Source: Psammoneis japonica
Lineage: Eukaryota
Length of the DNA: 64,000 nucleotides
Assembly: GCA_008632985.1 (NCBI GenBank)
Contig: QPGO01000071.1
Location: 235,516-299,515, forward strand
Reading direction: 5' to 3'
The first letter of the stretch is position 1, and each line of letters starts with the position of its first letter. The notes below the pieces were generated by a model, which did no database searches, was not told where the DNA came from, and worked only from the letters and a program-made list of their open reading frames with translations. The position numbers were made by a program, and so were the translations under genes. Shown here in pieces: positions 17,737 through 57,150 of the stretch.

Positions 17737-19768
17737 GCAGTGGCACACAATGTAGTTGTAATCTAGATTGCATTGTTTGGGGCACTTTTGTCTGGCTCTA
17801 ATTTTTCCATCGGATGTTTTTCAAATCTAGCTCTTGCTTGTGCAAGGCACTTGCTTGCGACCAGCATGTGCTGGGCCGACTGATGGGGTCTAGCACTCCT
17901 AAATGAAATCAGAATAAGAACATCAGCCTGGCGAGACGTCTGGACAAACTCCTTTCACATCGTAATTGACCTGCCGTTCACGGCAGTGGTCTTCTTCCCG
18001 TGTGGATCCGCAGCTGACCTGAATGCGCAGACGACTGATCTGTGCGCCGAATCCCCGTTTCGCGTTTGCGGAATAGGTATCCAAACTTTACGCGTCAGAA
18101 CATGACTTCACTGCGTGAAACAGGGGTCACTAGAGCCGTAGGCCTGGTATGTTGACGTCATGCGTACATTTTGTACCACAACACTGTGTAAAAAATAACG
18201 TCACAAGCCGTCATCACTCTCGAAACTCGATGCGCCGAAGAAGTTGTGGACGACCATGATGAATACGCAACGATTCTGACGGTAACAAGTAAGTTTATTC
18301 TCAACGGTACATTATAGAGCTCCTGTATATTCTTTTCTTCATTGAATGATGTAAGATTTTTGGTTGAAAACAGTGTAAAATATCTTGTAATCGGCTTGCA
18401 AACATGAAGGACTAATGCAAATCAAAATTCGAAGGCCTCTCCCTGCCAGTAATTAGCACCACTTTCTAAGATAAACCCACTCAAGAGCCCTAGATGACTA
18501 GCTTAGATACACATTGCATCAACAATGGATCTCTAAGAGATGCTTAATAACTTAGATACTTTCTTCTGCTGCTTTAGTCGGACAAGCCAGGTTCGTCACA
18601 ATCTCCAGCACAACAGCTTCCGGCGTCTCAAGCACTTGTTAAACGTTTCTGCTGATTCATATCACCCACAATCATTGCAAAAGAGGACTCATGGTAAGAC
18701 ATAGATGACATGACGACCATTCATAACGATTCTTGCTGCAGTCCGAGTCGATTTGGTTGTCAAGTTGGGCGACTGGCAAACAACTTCCAGGCGGATCTGT
18801 GATTTTTCTGCTCATATAAAACCACCCCGATAAGCCAGACACCTCAGCCTATCATCTTCTATGTATATACGAGTGAATAGACGTGATTGTATCCAATGCA
18901 CTCCGACTTCGACGTTGGAAACGGCGTTGTCGGTCGATGCACCTGCGGCAGAAATTTTGACAGACAGCAAAAAATGAGTTAGTAAAAGTGTGATAATTGA
19001 CAGTTTGAGTGGTACTCACCCACTAGTATCCTTCCTATAGGCTCGATGAAGACATTCCACTTGTGATTACCACTCAAATTTAAATGTTGACGACGTCGCA
19101 ACCGACTAGTCACCACGCTCGACGTCAAGTTCGTGCCACCCAAAAACACGAAGCACGGCGGTGCTTGACCAACAAGCACGAATATCCATGAGTAACTCCA
19201 TCCACACCACCACTTTTATTGAATCGTTCAAAGAATGTATGTAACCTTTGATGTGCTTCGGTCATAGAGGCATTCGCAAGCTTCGATTAGGTGGAGGCAA
19301 CAACAGCGAAAATGCATGAGAAGTGGTAGATGGGAAAAAAAAGCATCTAAAGGAAAAAATTGAGCAGGAATCTCTATGTCATGTGCTCCCAATATGGTAT
19401 GGAAGGACTCTCCAGACGAGATTCCTGCTCAATTTTCAATGTTAACGCCGCCGTCAACGATTTTCTTACCATGGTCGATGTCTTTTTTTCTCGTGTAAAA
19501 AGCACGGAGATTTTCGGATGGCGGACGAACGTGCAAAAAAATATTTTAGTCGAATCACTCATCTATAAGGTCCCTCCACGTAGAAACTTTCACGCAGTGA
19601 CTTGCTTTCCCGCAGCTTCAACAAGCTTTACTGAAGAAATAGGCTTTGGCTTTGGAACAAACAAATTATTTCCTTCTTTCCGAAGTTCTGCAACAGCAGT
19701 TGGAACAAACTCAACGGTCATCACACCGTAACACATACCGCCGCAAGCAGCAGTCTCTGTTATCGAAC

Positions 19769-21826
19769 ATGTCAGGTCCCTTTGTCGAGTCTTGTAACGT
19801 GAGGCGTCGGCAGATTGCTTCGACGAAGCAGCTGTTTGCTGCTGCTTCTGCATCGCCAGAGGCTGTGTCATGGGATAATGACTTTGTTGTACGGGCAGTC
19901 ACTCCATCGGAAATCAGCACACTTCGTGGACCATGTCGTTGCAAGTGTCAAGACTGGAGTAAAATCCGTTTAATGCTACGAAAGGAAGTTGTCGCGACCG
20001 ACCAAAGTGTTCAGTTACAAACGTTTGTGACTGACAACACCTTTGCAGGACTAGTAGTTTTGGGTTTGCCTGCTGAACGAGAGGGAAGCAACGAAATTCC
20101 ACCCGGAGTCCATTCGAACATTCTTATTGCCGACTGCATCTTGGAACCCAATTGCCGCGTCTATCGAAACACAACGATGCGCCAAACACACGTGTGTAGT
20201 CATGCGTTTGTGATGAATTGTGGCGAAGTCTCAGCAGATAAAGCACAGAATTATGACTCTATGGATGTGATGGTTGGGGCTGAGAGCGGAGGAGGAAGAA
20301 AGCTCACAGTCACTGTAGAGGGTACAATGATTGACGTCTGCGATGAGCTGATAAATTTATCAAAGAAGGACGATATCCCCGCTCCAGGGATTCTCAAACA
20401 AGACGAGTTTATGTGCGACTTGAACATTTTGAGCTCGTACGCCACAGTACGAGACACTCCAACCATTCAGAACGTGTATGTAGCATCGCATTCGTCCATC
20501 GAATCGGCCACATCTGTCAAGAATGCCGTGCTTCTGTCGGATTCTAAAATATCAAACTCATCGACGGCATCGAACGTCTTTTTGCAGTGGAATGCGGCGA
20601 TTTCTGATCAATCCAACGTTGTTGATACCCTCTTGATGGAGCACGCACACGCAGGTCCACACTCAACATGCGCTTCATCTATACTTGGCCCGGACGTTCA
20701 TATTTCCACCGGTGAAGTCCATGCTTCCGTGCTTGGCCCCAACACAAATGCTCATCACCAATCACTCGTAATTAGCGTCCTCTGGCCGTTGGGTAGGGGC
20801 AATGTCGGGTACGGCGCGAACGTCGGGTCCAATCACACTGGACGAATACCGGACCAAGAAACATGCGCCGGAGAAGGAACCTTTTGGGGCCTGAGCTGTG
20901 TTGTGAAATTTCCCGTCAATTTGTTGGAGTCACCCTATTCGCTTGTCGCAGCAGGAACCACTCTGATACCACAGCGTATCTGTATGCCATTCTCGTTGCT
21001 GGTGGATGGCGAGGATGGCATGTGCCAAATAATGCCAGGGTGGGTGCTTTCCAGTTCTCCTTATACTCTATTACGGTCTGAACAGAAGTTTGCCAAACGA
21101 CGAAAGGCAAAACGGCACTTGTTCTACACTGGCTATAAGATTATGAGGCCTGACATTATCAACATGTGCTTGGCGGCGAGGAACTCGTTATCTAGGGTTG
21201 CCTCAAAGGATTCAAAGTACAAGACCGAGAGAGAAGTAGCCGGAATCGGCAAGTGTTATCTCACGGAAAAGGCAAGACAAGCAGGAATCGATTCTTATTC
21301 TAGGTGCATTCAACGTTACGTCCTTCATGGCTTGCTGGGGCATATCTTTTCGTTGGAAGCGTCAGGGAACGACATACTGACTATCCTCAATGGTGAACTA
21401 TCCTCACCCCAAGCAGCTTTAGCTAGCACTACTGACTCAAAGAGCGTGTCGTGGTCGGCTCTTCCATGGAAAGAGGTAAGCTCCGAACTTTGGAGCCATC
21501 AACGGTCTATTCTGTTGACGGAGTTTCCGAATCTGGGAAGTTCCAACGTGGGTCCGTCGCTGATTACCGAAATGCTGCTCAAACTCGTCAACCTCGAGAA
21601 CGACTATGCTCATGCCGTTCATCAGTGCAAGCAGCGTGATGATGTTCGCGGTGGCAAGACCATCCCGGGTTACCAGGAGTCTCATGTTTCGGCGGACAAC
21701 GATTCTGTCATTGTTTTAGCGCGGCAAGAAGCACAAAGGGTGGAGGAGACCGTCCGCGGAATACTTGCTGGTTTTCAAAACAATCACAATACAAACTACA
21801 GCATAGACGCGAGAAGCAGGCTTTAA
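19769..21826 (+). CDS. DUF4954-like protein with a beta-helix-like repeat region
   Basis: Motif HHQSLVISVLWPLGRGNVGYGANVGSNHTGRIPDQE..GEGTFWGL; ORF is open from 19646, first ATG at 19769. Confidence 0.7.
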   Translation: MSGPFVESCNVRRRQIASTKQLFAAASASPEAVSWDNDFVVRAVTPSEISTLRGPCRCKCQDWSKIRLMLRKEVVATDQSVQLQTFVTDNTFAGLVVLGLPAEREGSNEIPPGVHSNILIADCILEPNCRVYRNTTMRQTHVCSHAFVMNCGEVSADKAQNYDSMDVMVGAESGGGRKLTVTVEGTMIDVCDELINLSKKDDIPAPGILKQDEFMCDLNILSSYATVRDTPTIQNVYVASHSSIESATSVKNAVLLSDSKISNSSTASNVFLQWNAAISDQSNVVDTLLMEHAHAGPHSTCASSILGPDVHISTGEVHASVLGPNTNAHHQSLVISVLWPLGRGNVGYGANVGSNHTGRIPDQETCAGEGTFWGLSCVVKFPVNLLESPYSLVAAGTTLIPQRICMPFSLLVDGEDGMCQIMPGWVLSSSPYTLLRSEQKFAKRRKAKRHLFYTGYKIMRPDIINMCLAARNSLSRVASKDSKYKTEREVAGIGKCYLTEKARQAGIDSYSRCIQRYVLHGLLGHIFSLEASGNDILTILNGELSSPQAALASTTDSKSVSWSALPWKEVSSELWSHQRSILLTEFPNLGSSNVGPSLITEMLLKLVNLENDYAHAVHQCKQRDDVRGGKTIPGYQESHVSADNDSVIVLARQEAQRVEETVRGILAGFQNNHNTNYSIDARSRL

Positions 21827-24447: not shown

Positions 24448-25467
24448 ACTTCGATAGGTAGCCAACTTTTTGCCTCACACGTTTGTACTCCGAGCTAGCT
24501 ACTCTACTAGAGCTCCGAGAAAGCAAAACTCTGTGCAGTTTTCACGAGAGTTCTCAACCTACGTACAGTCAGTACGGACAAAGCTGTAGCTTCGACGGAC
24601 GTGGCGGGGTCGAATATCGGAAATTTGGCAAAAGACCGCGGGTTTAGATCTAAATAGAAGATGTCTTTTGATGTCAACTATGTTAAATAGAAATCGATAT
24701 TACTTCACTGTCATTTATTGAAACAAGATTGGAGTAGTTAATCAGTTAAGTAATCGATATTCTCAGTGATGGTCGACATTCCTGAACAAGAATTGTCTTA
24801 TGAAATGTGCGGTCAATGCCATGTCTTCTATATGTACTTCAGAGCAATGTTGATTAGGATATGGCGTTTAGGACGTATCTTGGTCATCGAGATCAAGGTC
24901 GCTTGGTATGCAGATACACGTGAAACTCTGCGCAGTGCCGTTTCTTTGACACTTCTGACCGCACGCGTCTTTGTCTGGCGAATGGCAAGATTTGTACAGT
25001 AGAGACCAGAGGAATGCTGCGACGCATCGCATGCGCTCGAGCTTGCTGAGCGCTGCAACTGTGGGGCCCCATTCCAACCACGTCCGTGACGCTGTTTGCG
25101 CTGTCATCGAAAACCTCCGCCTCCTCCTCAGTGGTCTGCACCAATCCTGCCACTCATGTCTTCCTCTTGAGCCCTCCAGGTTCCTCCCTGAGTGCCGTCC
25201 TCCCTCAAATGTCCCATGAAAGCTCACTTCCTTGTTGTCAAAGTTTCTGCCCCTCCAGCTTTCTTTGCCTGCCCCTGCCTTCTGGCACCTTTGTTGCCAA
25301 GGCTGGCCTCAGCAGCACCTCCTGACACAACAACAAGCTCTTGGCTGGGCCACAACAGGCCTGCCTCCAACCTCCAACAGCTCGTCCACCACCCGCTGCT
25401 GCCGCCGCCAACAATGCCGGCCTCTTTCTCTTCTCCCTTTTGCTTTTGACCATCTTGGCAGCACTGG

Positions 25468-26205
25468 CTGCCACTTCCCTGCTCTTTCTTTTTCAGCCAT
25501 CTTGCCACTTTTGGGCTGGTGCCCCCATGACTTTTCTGACTCCCGCTCTTCTTTCTCTGCCTGCCAAGCCCCCCCTCTCTCTCCTCTCGCTGCCACAACC
25601 CGCTCTTTGCTCAGACCAATGCCACCTGGAAAGAGACTTCCTCTGAGGGCCTTGGCTTTTCCCATGCCACCACTCCTCAGCCTCCCAGTTCCAGGCCTCC
25701 TGTCAGAGCTTTGATTGTGCTCTCTCTCCAGTCATCTGTCTTCCTGTGCAGCGTCTCCTCCTCCACAACTGTGCCCCGCCACCTGTCGTTCTCTTTGCCT
25801 TTGGCCCATGCTGGTGCCAGCCCCCTTTTTTGCCTCTGCCCCTGCTGCTCTTGGCTTCACTCACCTGCCATTCATTTCTCCTGTGCATGCATGCTGCCAA
25901 CACCTGGCTCTCCCTGTTCTCTGTTCAACCGCCATTGGAGCAGAGACAAGGGCAATGTGGTGTTGAGAGCTGCTTGCTCTGTTGAGCCATCTCAAACTTT
26001 GGTCTTTGTCCAAAGAGGCTTCTTTGTGCCCCTGTCTTGCCACCTTTCACACACCAAAATGGCAGCCAAAATTGAACAAGACATGCACTCCCACCTCCTG
26101 GGCAAGAAGAGCTTTTTGGCAAATGTGCTGCCTGCACCTGCAAGATTCACCACCACTGGTGCTGCTGCTTGTGCCACACAAATCAACAGATTTGTGCCAT
26201 GTGGA
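25468..26205 (+). repeat. Long direct repeat, copy A (LTR-like)
   Basis: Aligns with 30659-31665, e.g. gtggtgttgagagctgcttgctc and gagccatctcaaactttgg. Confidence 0.8.
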
Positions 26206-26299
26206 GTTCATGGAGAGTTGTTCCTTGCTTCAAAGTTTTTTCATGCAAAATGTGTTCCACCGTTGACTCAAAGTCTGGACCACCAAAATGTTTGAAATC

Positions 26300-29100
26300 A
26301 GGTGGATCAGCAACTCTCCAATGTTGTTGGTCAAGCGTGCCATCACATTGGCTGGGCCAATGAGCAAGAGATTTGGGCTCAGCAAAGGTGGCATTTGCAA
26401 GCCAGCATCTGTCATGGAAACTGAGCAGTGTAAAGGATCTGGCACAGTGGGGATGCTTTCCCACAAATGGTCTGGAGCCAAGCAACTTGGCAGTCCACAG
26501 CCTTGTTCTTGAGTGGCAAGAAATGTGTTTTCCAACGCACACCCCTCCTGAACAAATTGTTTTTGCACTCATTTTGCAGTGCTGGAAGGAAGTTAGGTGG
26601 CACTTCTTTCAGAACCCAAACAGTCAGTTCATCTGGTGGATGGCAGTTGGAAGCACTCAAGTTCCTGTGGCACGTTGCATTGCGTGACCCTTGTTGCAGC
26701 TTGGTCCTGCCATGCACGGTGGACAGATTTTCATTCCGAAGTCAACTCAAGTGAGCATGTTCTGGCACACTTCTTCACTCTCATTGAACAGACAACATGT
26801 TCATCTAAATGTTGCTTCTTCCTGTTGCTGGGCATGGCTCACAAACCCACTCCAATGCACTTCTTCTCATGTTGGAACTCCACCACACAGGCATGCAGTG
26901 GCAAACAGGTTGATGCCAGTCAAAGAGGGAGAGAGACAAGATGTTGGGTGTGGAGCCCAAGATCTCCTCCTCAGGTGCATGTCCTCCCACATCCAATGTG
27001 TTGGAAGCTGTCAAGTGTCAAATTGCACATGTCCACTGGGCACAGCAGGACCACAATTGTCGAGGTGCACATGTCTTGCGTGGAGTCCCATGGACTCTCT
27101 TCTTCAACTCACGAATGGATGCTTCTTGGTGGATCCTGCCATTCCTTGCAAACATCCTTCATCTGGCCATTGGTCATCTCCAGCACGCCATTCAAAGCAA
27201 GGGTCTGAGGTGCACCCGCATCATGAACAAATGACATGACGGTGTCTGGGTGGTCCTGCTTCCTCTTCCAAGGACAGAACCTGTTGCACCCTCTTCTGTT
27301 GGTGAATGTGCTGCCTCCCATTTCACCATGCATTGATTTGACCTTCAAAAACACTTGGTCTGAGCTGAAGCATCCCTTGACAGCAGGGAACTTAAGCCAA
27401 GGGGCTTTCTTCCACACTTTCCATTCAGAAGGTGCACATGTGTTGCAGACCCCTGCCTGGGTTGTCACTCCAAGTGTGTTCTTTGCAGCCATCACACCAA
27501 CATTCCACCTCTTGTCAGAGAGTGTTTTGGGTGTGAGACAGTCAATGCACAACTCAAGTTGACAGTGCATGGACCCATTTCTGTTCGGCACAGTCCGGGT
27601 GCACGTCTGGGTTGCACCCGTCAAGTGGCCTGTGTCCCTTGGCATCATTGTGGGAGACATTAACTTGGGCAACTGAGCAGTGACACAGCAAGTCATCATC
27701 AGTCTCCATGATTGTGTTGTTGTCATAATGCAAGGTTTGGTGAGATCGGATCAAAGCAATGCACCTGGTCATGTTCATCAAGGTTGCCAGTCCGTCAGAC
27801 TTGGCTGATCTTTGGTGCACACCAGCGCATGCCAACTCAACCTCCCTTTGCGCCAAAGCATCAGCAAGAGGCTCCCATTTGGCGGGAAGTGTCAACTCCA
27901 ATCAAGGAAGACCATCTGGGCCCCCCAGGGCAGGCTTGTGGGAGTCAAAAACCAAGACAACACCATGCAGGCACAATGGAGTCCTGACTTTTGAGTCAGG
28001 AAAGGGATGAAGTGTGTGCTGGCGGCATCAAACTGATGAGGAGTGTTGTGGACAGTCAGTCCATTTGCTCACAGTTGGTTGGGGCACAGCAATGAGTTCT
28101 TCATTCGGTCCCCAAAAAACATGGCCTCGTGGACTGATGGCAAGTGTGGCTGGCCACTGGTTGGGTCAACCCACACAGCAGCAGCTGTGAAAACAGGTGT
28201 GTCCTTAACAGGTTCACACTCTTTGGAGTGTGGATGTACAACAACGGTGTGGTTGGCACTTGAGCACACAACAAAGTTGGATCCGACATTGCAAGTGTCA
28301 GCACGCGAGTCCAGATCATTTGTCATGTCAGCATCTGGGTTTCCAGCAGATGACACCAAGACAAGCAAGTCTTTCAGGAATCAACTGGACAAATGCACAG
28401 TGCCAGCAGGTCCAGAGATGTTTGATCCCATGCCATTTGGTGCTGGCACAACTGTTCATTCCTCAGCCTGAGGTTTCCTGTGAGCAGCGGGCTTCTTGTC
28501 TGACTCATCCGAGTCCTTCTTTTTATCATCAGGTTTTGATTCTGGCTCAGCAATGGCCACATTCTTGATTGCACAAGTTGCTTCAGCTGTGCTCTCTTCT
28601 TTGGAGAAGACAGATCCCGCCTTGTGCTTCTTTGCGGCTTTCTTGGCATCTCATGGAGCTTCTTGACTTGCTTGCTCCTGTTCTGGGCTGTCCAGAGCCT
28701 TCCACTTGTCAAGGGGACAGCGACCTGCCCCAATCCGGGGCTGTCCTTCTTGGCTCCAGGTTTTGCCATGGCAGTTGTCAGGGCAACATCCGACAGCAGC
28801 AACATTGCAGGCATCTGCACTCCAACTCTTGGCATTTTCAACCAGAGTTTTGATTGCTGCTGGCATGTCTCAAAATTGGCAAGCTCAGTGGGGTCTCCAT
28901 CCACTGCACTCTTCCTGGTCTCCAACCTGGGGTCAGAAATGCTCTTGAGAAAGTCAGAGACCTTCTTGGTTTCAGCCACTGGCTTGTCCAATTCCAGGAG
29001 ATCATTGCAAGCTTTCTGATGGTGTTGAACACAATGGGGACTTGTGGCTCAGCTCATCACAACAGTGGCACATCACTGCCCCACTCTGACTTCCCTTTTG
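26300..29100 (-). pseudogene. Copia gag end, protease and integrase remnant; no RT/RNaseH seen
   Basis: KKVSDFLKSISDPRLET (gag); DLDSRADTC..NSLLCPNQL (aspartic protease, 28069-28368); RWNVGVMAAKNTLGVTTQAGV and SFVHDAGAPQTL (pre-integrase and integrase). Confidence 0.8.
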
Positions 29101-44481: not shown

Positions 44482-45960
44482 TTAACTAAATTGCGGCAAG
44501 ACGATAACGTTCTCGTTCGCAAATCTCTCTAGGCACTGCAACGGTGACTCAACAAACAATTCGGGGCTACTGTTCTCAAGAACATATCTTCGGAGCTGTT
44601 CGTAATCAACTTCATTGAGATTGTTCGAGGAATCAAAGTTTGGCGGTAAAGAATCAAGATACGCCAGGGCTTCATCCACGCAAGGCTTGTCCTCTTTGAG
44701 CAACGAGATGATTGGGCGACACAGAGGTAAATTCGAGGAATCGACGATAAAAGCCCCTTGCGATCGGATTCCTTGAGAAACAGCATGAATGAGTAGAGGT
44801 TCGGCGCCGAGTAAGATTCCCTCTTCCTCCTTCCCAGGCAACAGGGTTGCCAAGAACAGCGGCAGTGCTTCCCCTGAGACAGACAGCGATTCCTCCACCG
44901 TCTTTCCAATCGTCCAATCATTTCCAGTGTCACTTGCTATTGCTGTCAGCTTCACATTGTGTTGCCTCGAGGCAATTGCGATATCAAAACAAGCACTCTT
45001 CATTTCACATACGGCAACAACTCCGCGATATTTGTGATAGACAACAAGATCAAGCTCGCCAACCTCCTGATTTTGATGCCAAAAATGAACGCTCCGATCA
45101 TACCAATAATCGTGATAAGCCCTTGAGCCATTGATCCCTTTTGCCTTTTCCAGCTGCGATACAATAATCGTAAAAATGGCGTCGCAGCTCGTTTCTTCAA
45201 ATCGTGTTCCTCGAGCGTTTCGATTTCTCGAGATTGCCAAGTCTATCTTCTTGTAGTTCTCCCAAATTAGTTTTCCTCCACACTCTTGCCAGATACGATT
45301 GGAATTGCAGAACCGCTGGTGTTCGGCGTCTGTCAGCAATTGCTTTTCCAACTCGACAACACACTGGCGATTCCGATCCAATCTTTTGGTTTTCTTTGCA
45401 GCTGCTTGGTCCACCATCTGATCCATCTCCTCTTTTGTGGGAGGTTTCTTTTTCTGCTTCCTCATCTTTCCATTGTAAATTCGATTTTTCAGTTCCTCCT
45501 TGGAGCATAAGGTTTGATCTCTTTTTAGTTGCTCTTTGATTTTTTGCAGACGCCAGTATAGTTTGCCTTGGGTCATGGTATCCATGCTCCGCCCTATGTC
45601 ATGCAAGGTGGCATCCGAATTTAACCCCAATAATTGTCTCAGTTCATCCAATCGAATTTGGACTTCGGCGCTCTTGTCGTCGTCGTCGTCGTCCTTGAGA
45701 GCGTTCTCCATAGCTTGTCGCAATATGGTGCGAGGCGAACGAGACAACAATTGACGGGCGCGTCGTGCAAAGAATGAAAAATCCTCTGGATTTTCGCCCG
45801 GATAGAGACCTGTTGGTATGGCTGCCTGGACCAAGAACCGATGGAGCGCTTGACGGAGGTGGTTCTGCTCTCGCAAAAGTGTCTCGGAGTGGAGGACCGG
45901 ACCTTTTAGCGCTTCCTCGAGGGAGGATGGTGATACAACGGTCTCTTCTTTTCTTGCCAT
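44482..45960 (-). CDS. Hypothetical protein: coiled-coil region followed by a PD-(D/E)XK nuclease-like motif
   Basis: RGTRFEE ... VGELDLVV ... VVAVCEMKS; intact 492-aa ORF. Confidence 0.65.
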   Translation of the reverse strand: MARKEETVVSPSSLEEALKGPVLHSETLLREQNHLRQALHRFLVQAAIPTGLYPGENPEDFSFFARRARQLLSRSPRTILRQAMENALKDDDDDDKSAEVQIRLDELRQLLGLNSDATLHDIGRSMDTMTQGKLYWRLQKIKEQLKRDQTLCSKEELKNRIYNGKMRKQKKKPPTKEEMDQMVDQAAAKKTKRLDRNRQCVVELEKQLLTDAEHQRFCNSNRIWQECGGKLIWENYKKIDLAISRNRNARGTRFEETSCDAIFTIIVSQLEKAKGINGSRAYHDYWYDRSVHFWHQNQEVGELDLVVYHKYRGVVAVCEMKSACFDIAIASRQHNVKLTAIASDTGNDWTIGKTVEESLSVSGEALPLFLATLLPGKEEEGILLGAEPLLIHAVSQGIRSQGAFIVDSSNLPLCRPIISLLKEDKPCVDEALAYLDSLPPNFDSSNNLNEVDYEQLRRYVLENSSPELFVESPLQCLERFANENVIVLPQFS

Positions 45961-46153
45961 AGCGAGGCTGTGTAGACTAAGGTTTTAGGTTCGCGGTCTT
46001 CTACTGTATTAGTCTATTAGCTCTTCGCGCTAATAAATACCGTAGAGCGCGGTACGAAGCACGACTCAGAACTCAGACGCGAGTTGGAGGGAGGGTCGCA
46101 TTATTCGCAATGGAATGCCGGTAGAGAGAACACACATGATCCGTTCCTGAGTA

Positions 46154-47986
46154 GTGAGTTCCTTACTGCCGCAAATGCCATATCCCAAAGACTTCCCAGT
46201 GGCAAAACATGATCTCTATGCGTGTGTTGGTGGCGAGAACAAGTTACCAATCATGCACAATGTTCAAGACATGGCGCGTGCTGTGAAAAGCGTGACTCAT
46301 CGACAACAAGAGCTTGTCTGTCCAGTATACACATACCGGGATGCACCGTCAACTCCGCTGCCTCGTAATTTGACTGTTCTGGGGTTCTTTTCGGTAATGG
46401 AGGGACGTGTACTTGAAGCAGACTCGATGCTTCAATTGTGTACGATTGCAGTAAAGAGACTGGACCGCAATGCAAGCGCTCTCAGCTCCATGGATGTTCG
46501 GAACTCACACCAATTTTGCAAACTCACACGGAAAATGAGAAATGAAGGCCTAGTAGCTCTCTGTACTCTGAATGACAAGAATCGTCGCTTGGGCATTCTT
46601 CAACCCATGGAATATGCCGCAGCTCCAAGAAATGCAGGGATTTATGTGGCAGAAGATTTTGCTGTCTGCTGTTTTATTGGAAAAGAGGAGAATGTTCTTG
46701 AAAAGATTTCTTTCCTGTTGGAAGTGACTAGAGAGCAATTGGATGGAACCAGAAAGCGCAAGGAACCTCCAAACCAGAACAATCATAATCTATTTGACAA
46801 AAAGCGGAACCATGCGCCCTCCTCTGTTGCATTTCGTATCGGCAAAGATTCCTGTTGCATCTCATTTCAACGGAACATTCTGCAAAGACTATTTAAGCCA
46901 ATGGACCATAACTGGTTTGGACTGGAATACTCCTTTATGCTCCGAGACGGTTCGGACCACGCCGCTGGAGTCGGAAACGCCGTGGACGTGCCGGAATGGC
47001 TCGTTCCATTGCCCCTTTTGGAGCAACTGGCGACCCAAGCTGGTCTCGAACTGGAATATGCTTGTAATTTTCATGAGTTTTATGCCCGGTGCTGCGACAA
47101 GGACAAGACATTGGTGGAACAAGCCATGACTACCCGAAAAGCTCTGAATCGGCGTGGATCCATCTCTAGGGACGAGTGGGACGTCGCACGTTTGTACATG
47201 GCTTTGAAGTTTCGAAAGGTTGGTGAATCGAAGCTTTCAGTGGAGAATGAAACACAAGATAAGACTGCCAACAATGCTGAGGATTTTTACAACGACCTCA
47301 AGCGCCATCGAAGTACTCGAGTAGATTCTCGTCTGTACCACTTGAGAAATTTCAATGGGTGGATAAAAGATACGCAAATCCAGGAACTAAGACCAGAGAC
47401 AGCAAGTGTCAGAGGACGTCAAGCGCAACCTCTCCGTGTCTTGGACCTTGCCTGTGGTAAAGGAGGTGATTTGAATAAATGGCTATAAAGGGGTGTATCG
47501 ACTTATGTGGGAATTGATGTGGCTTTGGAATCCCTCTCCGATGCTGCCAAACGGGCAATTGGTGCAGCTCGTTATCACCGAGGCTTCATGCCCCATTGCA
47601 GCTTTGTACACGCAGATCTAGGAGTAGATGTACCCGGCCGACCTCGAGTGCTGGGTGGACCGCTGCAAATTCTTTTATCATGGTCTTTACAAACGGAAGC
47701 ATCACCACATGTCCCATCAGGACACATGAAAAAGGATATCGACGAGCCGCAGTTCTCGTGGGTACAAGGAGGCGGCATCTCTGAGCATGAGTGCTTTGAT
47801 GTTGTTTCGATCCAATTTGCTCTTCACTACATGATGTCCTCGGAACAACGAGCCAAGAGATTTTTTCACACCGTTAGTGAGTTGCTCGACATCAACGGGA
47901 ACTTGATTGCAACCACAGTGGACGCCCGAATGGTCCTGGAGCATCTCATGGATACGGGTGCGGACTTTCATTCTTTCTTCGAATAA
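46154..47986 (+). pseudogene. mRNA cap guanine-N7 methyltransferase (RNMT/Abd1)-like sequence with permuted domain order and an in-frame TAA at 47486
   Basis: C-terminal motifs FGLEYSF, VPEWLVP, NFHEFY and EWDVARLY..FRK precede N-terminal motifs LRNFNGWIK, VLDLACGKGGDLNKW and FDVVSIQFALHY. Confidence 0.8.
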
Positions 47987-48391
47987 AATGGAGCTCTACT
48001 ACTTTGCTAGTCGATAAGCAAAGTATGGAATATTTGTGAGGAAGTTTCATTTCTTTGCATGCAGCTTCCTCGTTACTATTAGATGGACGGTGTGGGAAGC
48101 CTCGATGTGTTCAATATTGCTACGTGTCTCTCGCTAGGTCCCTCTCAATGTTGTACCCATTAGTTCTATCGTTGCTCTCCTGCTTTACGACAAGGCAAGC
48201 TTCAGACTTTCTCATATCCTTCCCTTCAAAGCCTTGGTCGATTGTGTGAGTGCCTCCTTTGCTCGGCTCTTCTACCAGAATTTCGAAGCTAACGTTGAAA
48301 AAATGAGCATGGCATCCAGGTAAACCTTGTTCTTGGGACATTGAACGCAACGTACATGGACATAAGTAGAACAGTCAAAGCTCTAAAGTTG

Positions 48392-50158
48392 TTACCGGTA
48401 TTCCTCCCCCTCCTCTTCGCTACTAGCGTCCTCGTTTTCTTCGTCCTCGTAGCTTGCAGTTGGCGCCGGAGTGTCGCCTGGTCGGGGATCCACATATTCG
48501 AACGTTACTCGATCATAGTCGACTCCCATCTTGTTCCTTCTCAAATGCTCCTTGAACATGGGCGTCATTTCATCCTCCACAAAGTCACAGAGATGACGCT
48601 CCACCGTTTGGTTCTTGGTGTGAATGCCAAACGTTCTAAAGAATTTTCCGCAGTTCGAATGTGACCCAATCCATAAACCTTTTCCTCCTTGCTGTAGTAG
48701 CTGTCTTTATCCTCGGGTCGTCCCATTCCGATAATTCCATTGAGCCGTTTCATGGATGTCGCTCCGGCTCCTAAAAAGTCTGCATCATGTTCCCAAAACT
48801 TTGGAGGCTTCACTTTGGGTTCGTACATGTGAAAGCACACGGACCGTTCGGGCGCGTAAAAGTCGTATCCATAGGTGAAAAGGCGCAAGCCCATGGATAT
48901 TTCCTCTCCTTGAAACACAAGTGGCAGGTACTGATCATAGGGGACTTGCACAACACAGTGGCCTCGTGCAAACGAAAAGCCAGCAGCCCAGAACGGGTGA
49001 AACTGGGGTTCTCCATGAATCGACGGAGGACCCTCGGGTTCTTGTCCGTGTCTCAAGTGCCGATGGACGCCTTCGCCCTCAAAGTCAGAGTCACACATGA
49101 GCGGCCGGCCTTCACGAATTGCCATGTGTGTCTCGGGATCAATGCTGGTATCAGTTTCCCAGAGCGATCGTCAGAAGCGCACAACAATAGTTAGAACGTT
49201 TCTGAACCACGAAAAACAAAGCCTTCTGTCCAACTTTATACGTACCTGTGTTTTAACTCTGACAAGTACACAGTCAATACACCGTATTCATTGTTTGCGG
49301 ATTCCCATTGCCCAATGAGATCTTCGTCCCAATCTTGTACAAAGCGCACGTGCGAATCGATTTGCATGGCAAAGTATTCTCCTCGATACATGCGATCACC
49401 CAAATGACGAGCAAAGACGGGCCCGACGGCAAATTTGGCGTCCATTTCATAAAACTCCATCAAGTAACGATACCGACAAAAGGCTTGTTGCGGATCTTCG
49501 TTGCAGGATTTCGGTGGATTGGAACACAAGCTATCCGACTCTGCAAACTTTTGATCAATAATGCCCACACGAATTCGTTCCGGGTATTTGCTCGAGCATA
49601 AATGGATTCCAACGTGGGAGCACACTGTGGATCACAATATGCCGCAATGGAAATAAAAATAGTGGGCATCTCCTTGCCATTGATGGTTGCATAGCTCCCC
49701 ACACTTTTTGCCTGCTTCATGGTCATGAGCCGCCTTCCATAATTTCCGAGATAGGCACGAATCCCCTTGTGCCCATACTCGGTGGGTGCCCAAAACTTTG
49801 GAACCGTCAAATTCAAGTGCATACCATACTTTTTTCGAGCAACTTTGGAAAATTCAATTCCCGGATGAGCAATCTCCTCCAGGTCCGTACCCACGTGTAG
49901 AGGAAAGGAATTGTGTTGAAGATTGTATATCTTCCCACCCCGAGTCTTGCCGTCCATGACTCGCATCATGACTCCGTCTTCTCCCACCATGACGTCGTTG
50001 GGCAGTTCTGGAAAGTTCCATACGGCAACAATTGTGACGACTGCAAACAAAACGGAAAAGACAATCAAGGCAAGAACTACTTGTCGATCGGTGGTGGAGA
50101 GCTTATAGGCAAAGGCTTGATTTTTTCGTCTACGTCGTTTTGTATTTACAGCAACCAT
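48392..50158 (-). CDS. GT60-family (Gnt1/OGNT-like) GlcNAc transferase, type II membrane; intron 49245-49145; two apparent 1-nt frameshifts
   Basis: IFISIAAYCDPQC, GPVFARH, MQIDSHVRF, FWAAGFSF and FQGEEISM. Confidence 0.85.
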
Positions 50159-50527
50159 TGTCGTGTGTTTCTCTGTCGAATGGTTGGTCACAACAATGTG
50201 GGTGTCGGTGGTATACTGTGTTGCTCTGCAGAGTTGCGTTCACTGCACAACATGGCCGTGAGGCATTTTTTGGCATTGTTTTTCGCAGACTTTTCTTCAC
50301 GCAGTGACATTTTCGATTTTGCATTGAAAGTTATTTAACCCCGAGGATACATGTATAGTGAATGTTCGCACTTGCCGATGGAGTTGTCCGATTTCGGCGG
50401 TCGTGCTACGCGCCTTTTGAGTTTTTGAAAAATTTGACGGGAAACCCAACAGTAAGCAGCGCAGTATAATGGACCTAACGCAACTCTTCTGCTGTTGTTA
50501 TTGTGCAACCAACCCGCTTCTCTTGTA

Positions 50528-51741: not shown

Positions 51742-53496
51742 ATGTCTAACGAATTATTAACCAATGGCCATGCCAAAAGAGAGCGAAAACGTAGCAGCAG
51801 AAAAAGAAGAAAAAGAATAAGCGAACGTAAAGTCATGTCGGCTGAGGATCGGCAACTCTTGAATGGCTTGGTTGTACTGGTTGCACTCTATGGCCTAATT
51901 ACAGTTGCTACCTACAAGTTTTTACCCTCTACATCAAACGACACTACAATAACGAGCAGCAGTGGTATTCGGGGTGTATCAGAAGAGCAGTCATTCGGTA
52001 TCAGCAACGATGCGATTGCAAAGTTGCGAGAAACATTTCCTGTCCACGTTGGTTCGGAACTGGAAGAAATTCCTCATCCCGGAATTGCCTTTTCGAAAAA
52101 GGCCCAATCCGTCTTTGGAGCTACCACAACTTTGAAGGTTCCCAAATTTTGGGCTCCGACCGAATACGGCCCCGACGGGATTCGTGCGTATTTGGGAAAT
52201 TACGGAAGTGTTCGCATGACCATGGAGCAAGCCAAGAGTGTGGGGAGTTTTGTCACTACCAAACAAGGCGAACGGTTGCCTACGATTTATGCGTCCATTG
52301 CCAATTATCGGGATTACGAGTGCGTCCCGACGGTCGAGTCGATTTATGCACGAGCCGAACATCCCGAACGGATTCGTGTCGCTGTGATTGATCAAGTGCG
52401 AGACGGAGATTCACTCTGTTCGACTCCAGCAGAACCCTGTGAACAAAGTCCAACACAAGCATTGTGCCAATACCGTCACTTGATGGATTTTTACAAAATG
52501 GATGCCCGATATGCGGTTGGTCCCGTCTTTGCGCGACATTTGGGGAACCGCATGTATCGAGGCGAGTACTTTGCCATGCAAGTCGATTCGCATGTTCGAT
52601 TTACAGAGCACTGGGACAGTGATATCATTGGACAATGGGAGTCGGCGAAAAATGAATACGGCGTCTTGTCCGTGTACTTATCGGATATTATTGGAAGGTG
52701 TGACGATTTGAATCAATGTTTCTGTTGTTTGTATTTGCTGTTAGCTTTGTTCTGATCCACCCTCGCTTCTACTCTCTTTGCGCACGCCATGTAGCATTGA
52801 TCCCGCAACCAACAAGAATATCCGTGGCATGAGACCCATCATGTGCGAAACCGATTATGAAGGTGTTGGCGTGAACAAGCACTTGCGTCATGGCCAACAA
52901 CCCGAGGGCAAACCCTACATTCACGGCGAACCCACGCTCCATCCCTTTTGGGCTGCCGGTTTTTCCTTTGCGCGGGGTCACTTTGTCGTGCAGGTCCCAT
53001 ACGATCAATGGTTGCCACTGGTGTTTCAGGGAGAGGAGATATCACTAGGACTACGCGGATTCTCATACGGATATGACTACTACACACCGGAACGTGCCGT
53101 TTGCTTTCACATGTACGCCAACAAGGAAAACAAGGAGGTACGAAAAAAGGTTCCACTCTTTTGGGAAAACACTCCCAACTATGCCAATGCCGGTGCGGAA
53201 GCCATGAAGCGATTGAATGGAATCATCAAAATGAGCAAGGACCCGTATTTTAACAAAGACGAAAACTGTATGGGTTGGGTCAAGTTCGATCGACGGAAAA
53301 GTTTTTTAGAACCTTTGGCATTCATACGGATACGCAAACAGTCGAACATCACCTGTGCCGATTTGTTGGACAACCCATGATGAAAAAGTTCAAACCGCAT
53401 TTAAGAAAGGATGGGTTGGGCATCAATTACGATGAGATTGACTTTGAATGGAAGGATCCAATTCCCGACAAGAAAAAGAGGAAAATTAATCGGTAA
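51742..53496 (+). CDS. GT60-family GlcNAc transferase paralog; intron 52698-52794; apparent 1-nt frameshift near 53265
   Basis: IYASIANYRDYEC, MQVDSHVRF, FWAAGFSF and FQGEEISL; same intron position and phase as 48392-50158. Confidence 0.85.
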
Positions 53497-55113: not shown

Positions 55114-57150
55114 ATGTCAGGACAACGCTCGTCAAGTAGTGGCGGAGCCGCAGCGTCCGTCGCTGCTGGTTGCGCCTTGCGCGAAACACCGTCACGGCGT
55201 GCATCGTCACAGTCGCAACAACAATTACAACCCCTCTCGTGTTCCGACGGTCTTGCCGTGTTTTCGTGGGGTCGTGGGGAAGACGGACAATTGGGACTGG
55301 GTGATACGAGCGATCAGGATGAACCCACCTATGTCGATGCTCTGCGGGGTGTGGGAGTGTCTCAAATTGCCTGCGGATCGGGTCATACCGTCGTCTTGAC
55401 GACCGAAGGAGAAGTGTATACCTGGGGCCGTGGCGATGATGGGAGGCTTGGGCACGGGGATAATGGATGGAAATATGTGCCGCGTATTACGCAGAGTCTC
55501 ACGGGACAAGTGGTGGTGCAAGTCACGTGTGGATCGGTATGTTTATGACGTGTTGTACTGATTTTGATGACTTGTGTGTTTCATACAGGCGATTGTCTTG
55601 TGGTTGCCTGTTGCGTTGGCTTGCGGTGCCTTGGCGTTTCAGAAGACGAGTGATTTCGATGAGCGTTGACTTACGATGGTTTTTTTGTAATTCATAAGTT
55701 GGTCGTGCTTGTTGCGTGTTGCAAAATCCCCCCCGCTCATTACTCTTTTTTGGCTTTGCGATTCTCGTAATTTTCACAGTATCACACTGCCGCAGTCACG
55801 GGAAATGGAGATTTGTTCACGTGGGGAGGTGGAATGTATGGTAAGTTGGGTCACGGCGATGAGACGGGCCACGCTATTCCAAAGCGAGTGGATGGATTGG
55901 CGGGTTTGGTGGTGTCTCAGATTGCCTGTGGGTCACGCCATACCGCGGTGATTACATCCAATGGTGCACTCTACACGTGGGGTGATAAAGAGAATGGTGT
56001 GGCGGGACACGGTGATACCGATGGGCATCAGTACACGCCAAAGTTGCTGGACAAGCTGGCTGCCAAGCGTGTGGTTCAGCTGAGTGCTTGTGGCTTTCAT
56101 ACGGGATGTTTAACGGATTCCGGGGAGCTATGGACTTGGGGAGAGGGCAAATTTGGGCGTTTGGGGCATTCGGCGGAACGCAATTGTCATTCTCCGAAAC
56201 TTGTTGAGGCTCTCAGGGGCAAGAGGCCACGGCAAGTGGCATGCGGAGGTTTTCATACGGCGGTCATTTCAGAGGATGGAAAAATGTACACCTTTGGCGG
56301 AGGAGAACACGGACAGTTGGGTCACGGTGATCGGGTTAACAAGGTGAAACCGACGCTAGTACAGGCCTTGGACGGAATTTTTATTTCACAAATTACGTGC
56401 GGCTGGTCTCATTCGGTTGCACTTACATCGCAAGGAAAGGTGTACACCTTTGGCAATGGCGATCACGGAAAGCTTGGACACAAGTCTAGTCGCAAGGTGT
56501 CTGTCCCTCATATTGTCGAAAAGCTAAAGGATCATAACGTTGTCCGCGTGGCATCCTACAATGAGCACACGGCAGCCTTGGTGGAACCCTTTGATCATGC
56601 TGGAGCAGGCTACAACTCGGTCCCCGTCACCACGGCCTATTCCTCTCAGATGCGCGCCTTGGTCAATGATGACGAATTCTCGGATGTCACCTTTGTCTTG
56701 GACGATGGACAATCCATTCATGCGCACCGAGCCATTTTGGCACAGCGGTGTGATCACTTTCGGGCCATGTTTCGATCGGGCATGAGAGAAAGTGTGGAAC
56801 GTACCATTAAGATCCCGAATTGCTCTCGAGAAGTCTTTCTATTGTTGTTGGAGTACATTTACACAGACTCGGTCAAGGTGGATGTGGAACACGCGGTGGA
56901 TCTGTACATTGCGTCCGACTTGTATCAGCTCGACCGATTGAGAGACATGTGCTGTACGGTCGTTCGTCGCAATCTCAATGCCGACAATGCTGCGCCGCTG
57001 CTACAAGCAGCATCCGATGCTCATTGTCAAGTGCTTAAAGAAGCGTGCATGGCCTTTATTGTGGAGAACTTTGATATTGTTTCAAAAACACAAGGCATCA
57101 AAGAAGTCAGTCACCCACTGCTGCTAGAAATCTTGGCCATGCGACCATAG
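55114..57150 (+). CDS. RCC1-repeat and BTB domain protein; intron 55537-55779
   Basis: Repeated xCGxxHT..G..yTWG.G..GxLGHG units; splice restores CGS|YHTAAV; BTB motif SDVTFVL..IHAHRAILA..FRAMF. Confidence 0.92.

Follow-up and report, generated by a model that had tools for sequence, protein, structure and literature searches.

We analysed a 64,000-nucleotide stretch of the genome of the diatom Psammoneis japonica (NCBI GenBank assembly GCA_008632985.1, contig QPGO01000071.1, positions 235,516 to 299,515 of the forward strand). We call this whole stretch the window, and positions are counted from its first nucleotide. The forward strand of the window carries a gene for a predicted mRNA cap guanine-N7 methyltransferase. 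Judged by its sequence and its motifs, the encoded protein is a member of the RNMT/Abd1 family that breaks the colinearity of this family: the last third of the catalytic domain (part C) precedes the first two-thirds (part B), and both follow an N-terminal domain (part A). A first-pass annotation of the same DNA had pointed out this order and had taken an in-frame stop codon and a GTG at the apparent start as signs of decay or sequence error.

The gene and its parts

Two open reading frames (ORFs), 46154..47488 and 47507..47986, lie in a common frame on the forward strand, and a TAA codon at 47486-47488 is all that separates them. Reading through this codon (with the stop as X) yields 610 residues; the frame is otherwise open over the 604 codons of the gene and has no frameshifts. 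Translation from the ATG at 46175, the earliest in this frame, gives a protein that begins MPYPKDF...KHDL, and the start motif MPYP...KHD is common to the window protein and its orthologues P0002, P0045, P0012, and P0030. Because the MPYP start aligns with the orthologues' own start, the translation start is ATG 46175, and the GTG at 46154 is irrelevant and no sign of decay. The gene's own product is absent from the matches that our protein-database searches returned.

Three comparisons give the order of the parts. The protein matches the Pfam family for mRNA guanine-N7 methyltransferases (PF03291; E = 2.6e-53, 181.6 bits versus a cut-off of 26.6), with the match split over three stretches. 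RNMT chains match it at E = 7e-24, and when it is aligned to human RNMT (8q69_A), window residues 257-355 correspond to chain residues 192-274, residues 391-467 to 2-75, and residues 546-598 to 112-164. A tblastn search with the diatom orthologue P0002 placed its residues 1-177 at 46175-46681, 511-692 at 46793-47302, and 282-510 at 47255-47971, which sets the breakpoint at residue 510|511. Finally, we compared the frame to a 740-position hidden Markov model (HMM) built from 120 listed diatom homologues. Along the frame, the gene is tiled by HMM positions 1-216, 515-678, 285-361, the TAA, and 366-514, with domain E-values from 2e-29 to 4.7e-65, well outside what chance would produce. The motif order along the chain is not colinear: HMM 515-678 precedes 285-514, just as RNMT 192-274 precedes 2-164. 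The catalytic core (HMM 285-678) is covered once, without overlap; its old ends, 678 and 285, are joined by the junction J2, and its new ends are at 514|515. All three comparisons agree with the first-pass annotation that the last third comes before the first two-thirds and is fused to it in frame, and its coordinates for the permuted parts were right to within about 30 nt. It had proposed a split HMM alignment as a check; against the diatom profile, the alignment reads 1-216 / 515-678 / 285-514.

The protein runs from the N-terminal domain through a basic linker to the C-part, and then through another linker to the B-part and the stop. The native C-terminus (after ...KFRKV) is tied by the linker of about 20 residues to the native N-terminus (...FY.DL..., RNFNGWIK). 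Coordinates are in Table 1.

Table 1. Positions in the window of the permuted gene, its parts, and the sites at which contigs differ. X1 and X2 are contig sets from two runs; P0167 and P0239 are permuted relatives.
Feature	Position	Strand	Details
Whole coding region, predicted permuted cap guanine-N7 methyltransferase	46175..47989	+	604 codons plus terminal TAA; one variable in-frame TAA
Part A, diatom-type N-terminal domain	46175..46798	+	HMM 1-216, E = 2e-29
Variant in the linker after the N-terminal domain	46730		window A, X1 A, X2 G; AGA to GGA (Arg to Gly)
Junction J1, basic linker DGTRKRKEPP...DKKRNHAPSS	46742..46825	+	replaces the canonical acidic, Trp-rich spacer, HMM 217-284
Part C, C-terminal third placed first (FGLEYSF, VPEWLVP, NFHEFY, RLYMALKFRKV)	46793..47260	+	HMM 515-678, E = 7.4e-58; RNMT 192-274
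Junction J2, 21-residue linker GESKLSVENETQDKTANNAED, old C-terminus to old N-terminus	47222..47284	+	P0167 and P0239 have the same junction and a similar linker length
Part B, N-terminal two-thirds placed last (LRNFNGWIK, VLDLACGKGGD, GIDVA, FDVVSIQFALHY, GNLIATTVDA)	47255..47983	+	HMM 285-361 and 366-514; RNMT 2-75 and 112-164
Variant in the codon for a Gly of GKGGD	47462 (codon 47462..47464)		window G, X1 T, X2 G; GGA to TGA in X1
In-frame TAA, variable, in the loop after motif I	47486..47488	+	four codons past the end of VLDLACGKGGD (47470)
Variant in the in-frame TAA	47486		window T, X1 T, X2 G; TAA (window, X1) versus GAA, Glu (X2)
Terminal TAA	47987..47989	+	four codons after HMM position 514

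The motifs that are expected for binding S-adenosylmethionine (SAM) and the cap are present despite the rearrangement. Motif I (VLDLACGKGGD, 47438-47470) and GIDVA (47510-47524), which has the acidic residue after the next strand, align to RNMT. So do the cap-pocket motifs LRNFNGWIK, FDVVSIQFALHY, VPEWLVP, and RLYMALKFRKV, all of which are present. (From the literature on Ecm1 and RNMT, we take the RNFNNWIK, FD..S.QF..HY, PE.LV, and LY..F.F.K motifs to have a role in the cap pocket.) The chain is opened in a loop that has the TTVDA strand and its following helix on one side and the hairpin before FGLEY on the other, and the new C-terminus comes after ADFHSFFE. This opening falls in a region of variable length, as the gap from part B to part C in canonical enzymes is 1-44 residues. 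No direct repeats or microhomology stand out at the junctions. We read the basic cluster in J1 as resembling a nuclear localisation signal. The spacer (HMM 217-284) and the C-terminal tail (HMM 679-740) of the canonical enzymes have no counterpart in the gene or elsewhere in the window. The 120-sequence HMM found no second or canonical copy, or piece of one, elsewhere in the 64-kb window.

The N-terminal region that the first-pass annotation had described upstream of the permuted parts is real: its roughly 205 residues make up a conserved diatom domain (about 200 residues; MPYP...KHDL...CTIAVKR...RFGIL.P) that is found in 113 of the 120 listed homologues. This domain matched no Pfam family at E ≤ 5 and had no Atlas match. 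Our guess is that it might recruit the enzyme to the polymerase; the domain would keep whatever recruiting role it has in other diatoms.

We also considered whether an inverted relic of part C lies downstream of the gene, as tblastn aligned residues 575-617 of P0012 to 48368-48243 on the reverse strand (E = 0.034) and there is an inverted repeat (47184-47209 / 48224-48249). The 120-sequence HMM found nothing there, and we dropped this candidate as a chance similarity.

Contigs across the junctions and a variable stop codon

Contig sets were available from two runs, X1 and X2, of one sample (shares of sampled words, 0.98 and 0.97). An X1 contig of 13,251 nt spans 45900-48300 and an X2 contig of 2,278 nt spans 46115-48300. 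Both contigs cross J1, J2, and the end of the gene in the same order as in the window, with no joints, indels, or loose ends, so two separate assemblies bridge both junctions. X1 differs from the window at 1 base and X2 at 2 bases (Table 1).

Two of these differences affect whether the frame is open. The TAA at 47486, which the first-pass annotation had linked to decay or sequence error, is present in the window and in X1, but it is not fixed: X2 reads GAA. A TGA at 47462 is found in X1 only. The sample holds a stop-free version (X2), a version with one stop (the window), and a version with two stops (X1). These variants may be alleles or errors.

The two G/T differences at 47462 and 47486 are 24 nt apart, each of them makes or removes a stop codon, and they occur in three combinations. 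That two of only three variant sites in about 2.2 kb are nonsense is odd; the pattern might stem from a null allele, from damage to the DNA, or from an error in polishing.

Two ways of reading past the TAA were rejected. An intron that hides it is at odds with the flanking residues, which align without gaps to RNMT and to the diatom homologues. A sense codon was rejected as well. Across the whole window, 25 single in-frame stops separate long open stretches, and 21 of these are TGA, 3 are TAA, and 1 is TAG. Because this gene ends in TAA, and because TAA accounts for just 3 of the 25 single stops, TAA is a stop codon here.

As for the many long open stretches that are broken only by a single TGA (21 of the 25 cases; for example, 25323-28851 in a forward frame), we read the excess of TGA as frames that are antisense to real genes with rare TTA and CTA codons, and not as recoding.

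The X2 contigs are roughly gene-sized: one runs from 46115 to about 48392, another ends at 45967, and 45981-46061 is uncovered. This layout would fit a transcriptome. The run is not recorded as RNA, and we did not count it as evidence of expression.

Canonical homologues and permuted relatives

The 120 listed homologues are among 291 proteins at E ≤ 0.001. Their order is A-B-C in 113 and B-C in 7, and in none of them does part C come before part B. The best identity of the window protein to a canonical protein among the matches listed is 58%. Canonical diatom enzymes include P0045 (from Seminavis robusta, "mRNA cap guanine-N7 methyltransferase"), P0096 (a predicted protein of Thalassiosira pseudonana), and P0100 (from Nitzschia inconspicua, "mRNA capping enzyme"). 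Like these, the window protein has the N-terminal domain (HMM 1-216) with the MPYP start and the same core, at a median identity of 54% in part B and 48% in part C. Unlike these, it has the order A-C-B, a short basic linker stands in for the acidic, Trp-rich spacer (HMM 217-284), it does not have the conserved C-terminal tail (HMM 679-740), and the loop that follows motif I is shorter by 2 residues.

A broader comparison covered 383 proteins, to which an exhaustive representative search (the best 150 of 3,026 matches at E ≤ 0.001) and further word-based searches contributed. Exactly three of these proteins are not colinear, namely the window protein, P0167, and P0239, and all three share the C-to-B junction. 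P0167 (245 amino acids, on a 27,188-nt contig) reads FGLEYTF...KFRKVRES, a 19-residue linker, and FYDGL...VLDLACGKGGDLGK. P0239 (133 amino acids) reads LPEWM...KFRKVRES, a linker, and ...FCTGL...HMRAFNG. A further relative, P0157 (203 amino acids), corresponds to part B and is 67% identical to the window over that part. It ends just after HMM 515, 10 residues past the same FHS motif as in the window. It shares with the window a loop behind motif I that is shorter by 2 residues (KWVRRGVS versus KW.LH.RGV in canonical enzymes), and it has an arginine at the position of the window's TAA. These three relatives are environmental sequences and are 53-67% identical to the window protein; in the databases one is labelled a hypothetical protein, one a 203-aa methyltransferase, and one is unnamed. 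The first-pass annotation had raised the prospect that orthologues across the lineage have the permuted order as their standard. A small clade does share this order, but it is not the usual one of diatoms, as 0 of the 120 listed homologues have it.

Scans for the DNA of the permuted relatives gave 12 metagenome loci, all of them colinear (12/12), and none in the viral scan. Three of these loci (L002 4209-6652, L003 432-2875, and L005 486-2929) encode near-identical canonical homologues, each in three pieces; the splits are near HMM 316 and 467, with two introns as the probable cause, and most of the other loci are uninterrupted. Intron positions were considered as the cause of the breakpoints and rejected, as the breaks in these loci are near HMM 316 and 467 and not at 285, 514, or 678.

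We examined columns that are at least 95% conserved in the 120 canonical enzymes. The window protein keeps 95 of 109 such columns in part B and 37 of 45 in part C. P0157 keeps 82/85 in part B (it does not cover part C), P0167 keeps 39/43 in part B and 40/42 in part C, and P0239 keeps 17/20 and 27/28; the three relatives retain 85-98% of the conserved columns. The window's departures are mostly conservative (I/L, I/V, E/D, and L/V). The window, P0167, and P0239 have departures in common at HMM 288 and 297, beside J2, as expected if the former N-terminal segment has turned into a linker. Given that the relatives are just 53-67% identical to the window, the arrangement has survived substantial divergence with its catalytic motifs intact.

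We built two trees. For FastTree, we took the 174 of 299 proteins that fill at least 85% of 395 core columns, thinned them at 80% identity to 108, and added the 4 permuted sequences. The window and P0157 were paired with support of 99, and the tree did not resolve P0167 and P0239. For IQ-TREE with a mixture model, we used 48 rows: 40 sequences with domain A, thinned at 72% (P0181 was removed manually), together with 4 outgroups and the 4 permuted sequences. This tree grouped the window, P0157, and P0239 (93 by the Shimodaira-Hasegawa-like approximate likelihood ratio test) and left P0167 outside this group, at a position with zero support. When all four were forced into a single clade, the log-likelihood was 18.3 above that of the free quick-search tree (p = 0.80 in the approximately unbiased test). 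A single origin of the permutation is compatible with these data and slightly favoured, though not proven.

Origin, function, and alternative explanations

The permutation looks natural, inherited, and maintained rather than a one-off lesion or an assembly mistake, because every part is complete and none overlaps another, the junctions are bridged in two runs, and relatives share the junction (P0167 and P0239) or the C-terminus (P0157). This bears out the natural circular permutant that the first-pass annotation had offered as one of its explanations. We consider it likely that the gene encodes a genuine circular permutant of the diatom mRNA cap methyltransferase that is specific to one clade, and this permutant is probably functional. 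The window copy is the most diverged and fastest-evolving member of the permuted set, and its nonsense codon is variable.

We suggest that the permutation arose once, in a sub-lineage of diatoms. Most likely, the domain would have been duplicated in frame and the outer halves would then have been lost, which is the textbook model of circular permutation. Since three diverged relatives have the permuted order, selection would have maintained it after that. The window copy is present in the sample as versions with and without premature stops.

Can the rearranged chain form the enzyme? In our first AlphaFold2 model, the alignment (A2) was deep over part B and had no depth over part C; the predicted local distance difference test score (pLDDT) was about 90 for part B and 25-70 for part C. 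The modelled part B matches RNMT, Abd1, and Ecm1 (Foldseek E = 5.6e-8, probability 1.00). A second model, from a clean but shallow alignment of 12 rows (A4), had a mean pLDDT of 51 and a predicted template modelling score of 0.40. Part C was not confidently placed in either model. Parts B and C together carry every motif of the SAM and cap-guanine pockets, so we would expect the window protein to fold as a class I methyltransferase and to methylate GpppN-RNA as RNMT and Abd1 do. Furthermore, a cut in a loop of variable length and a join of about 20 residues between the native ends are the usual conditions for circular permutants to fold.

The window protein resembles human RNMT, yeast Abd1, and Ecm1 of Encephalitozoon cuniculi (structures 8q69, 3bgv, 9mg5, and 1ri1) in that it belongs to PF03291 and its SAM and cap-pocket motifs align with theirs; its modelled B-part also superposes on RNMT. 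Unlike these enzymes, its chain is permuted and has an extra N-terminal domain, and its activity is predicted from the sequence. To our knowledge, all descriptions of the RNMT/Abd1 fold to date are of the colinear form. Our search of the full-text literature found no description of a permuted cap N7 methyltransferase. Circular permutation is described for various groups of methyltransferases that act on DNA or RNA, with a chain break after motif II that leaves the fold undisturbed, in a passage of an earlier study (PMC1282579). The window protein is like these enzymes in being a natural permutation of the class I SAM-methyltransferase fold. Unlike the permutants in that passage, which are cut after motif II, it is cut late, at HMM 514|515, and only the last third of the domain moves.

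Several observations weigh against a functional permutant and raise the alternative that the permutation is real but that the gene is decaying: it would be a pseudogene or a dispensable paralogue, with capping done by a canonical copy elsewhere. Given the TAA at 47486 and, within GKGGD, the TGA at 47462 in X1, at least some of the sample's copies are unable to produce the complete enzyme. The window protein keeps fewer of the conserved columns than its relatives do, and by a MAFFT-based count it is more diverged than 120 of the 120 canonical proteins in part B (making it the most diverged of 121 sequences) and than 119 of the 120 in part C, which fits relaxed constraint. Also, our search for a canonical copy was confined to the 64-kb window, and a paralogue may lie elsewhere in the genome. 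On the other hand, the 604-codon frame is open apart from the variable sites and has no frameshift, the X2 contig has neither stop, and the departures at conserved columns are mostly conservative. No canonical piece is present in the window, and no closer canonical protein is among the database matches listed, where the best is 58% identical. We consider decay unlikely, although it is the main rival reading.

The relatives are open to a different objection. All three are fragments, none has the whole A-C-B layout, all were compared as protein sequences, and the called ORF of P0167 does not include HMM 515-555. P0167 (245 amino acids) and P0239 (133 amino acids) might be the middles of tandem B-C-B-C proteins, or the junction might have arisen repeatedly, with the window as an isolated late product. 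P0167 reaches 76% identity with C-parts of canonical proteins versus 56% with the window, and in the free trees it falls apart from the window, among canonical sequences, without support. However, the 53 residues ahead of the C-part in P0167 are basic and linker-like rather than part B, B-C-B-C occurs in 0 of the 383 proteins, J2 is at the same position and has a similar length in the window, P0167, and P0239, and the one-clade tree has the higher likelihood. We regard a tandem or repeated origin as improbable. Misordering of the halves by the assembler is nearly excluded. X1 may be the source of the assembly itself, and both runs are from one sample, which limits the support that they give to the order. 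Against this, separately built contigs of 13,251 nt and 2,278 nt cross J1, J2, and the gene end with just 1-2 base differences, all three junctions are in frame, and unrelated environmental sequences have the same junction and the new C-terminus.

A stronger version of the circular-permutant reading is that this is the only cap guanine-N7 methyltransferase of the diatom sub-lineage and an essential one, and that the sequenced strain also carries nonsense alleles. Cap N7 methylation is essential in eukaryotes. We hold this stronger version tentatively and lean against it.

If the gene is indeed a clade-specific permutant, it would give the RNMT/Abd1 family its first natural permutation, with a cut site unlike that of the known permuted DNA and RNA methyltransferases, and canonical sister lineages are on hand for direct comparison. 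Such a permutation, young and natural, and confined to one group of algae in which more than 100 canonical relatives stand beside it, would make it possible to study cleanly the origin and the tolerance of permutations in an essential enzyme. For engineering, it would also be useful as a pointer to a loop at which the chain can be opened and joined anew. Finally, it is a warning for annotation, as pipelines based on profiles and gene calling would fragment such genes, and database entries for the relatives are limited to short pieces.

The neighbouring genes are ordinary nuclear genes, and we regard the methyltransferase gene, too, as a real nuclear diatom gene. Two genes of an N-acetylglucosamine (GlcNAc) glycosyltransferase family (PF11397) lie downstream, at 48392-50191 on the reverse strand and at 51742-52755 on the forward strand. 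The first of these consists of several exons and runs towards the methyltransferase gene, so that the two stop codons are about 400 nt apart. Other neighbours encode a sulfotransferase (PF03567; 41026-42432, reverse strand), a protein with RCC1 repeats plus BTB/BACK (55813-57150, forward strand), and a DUF4954/hexapeptide-repeat protein (19646-21826, forward strand).

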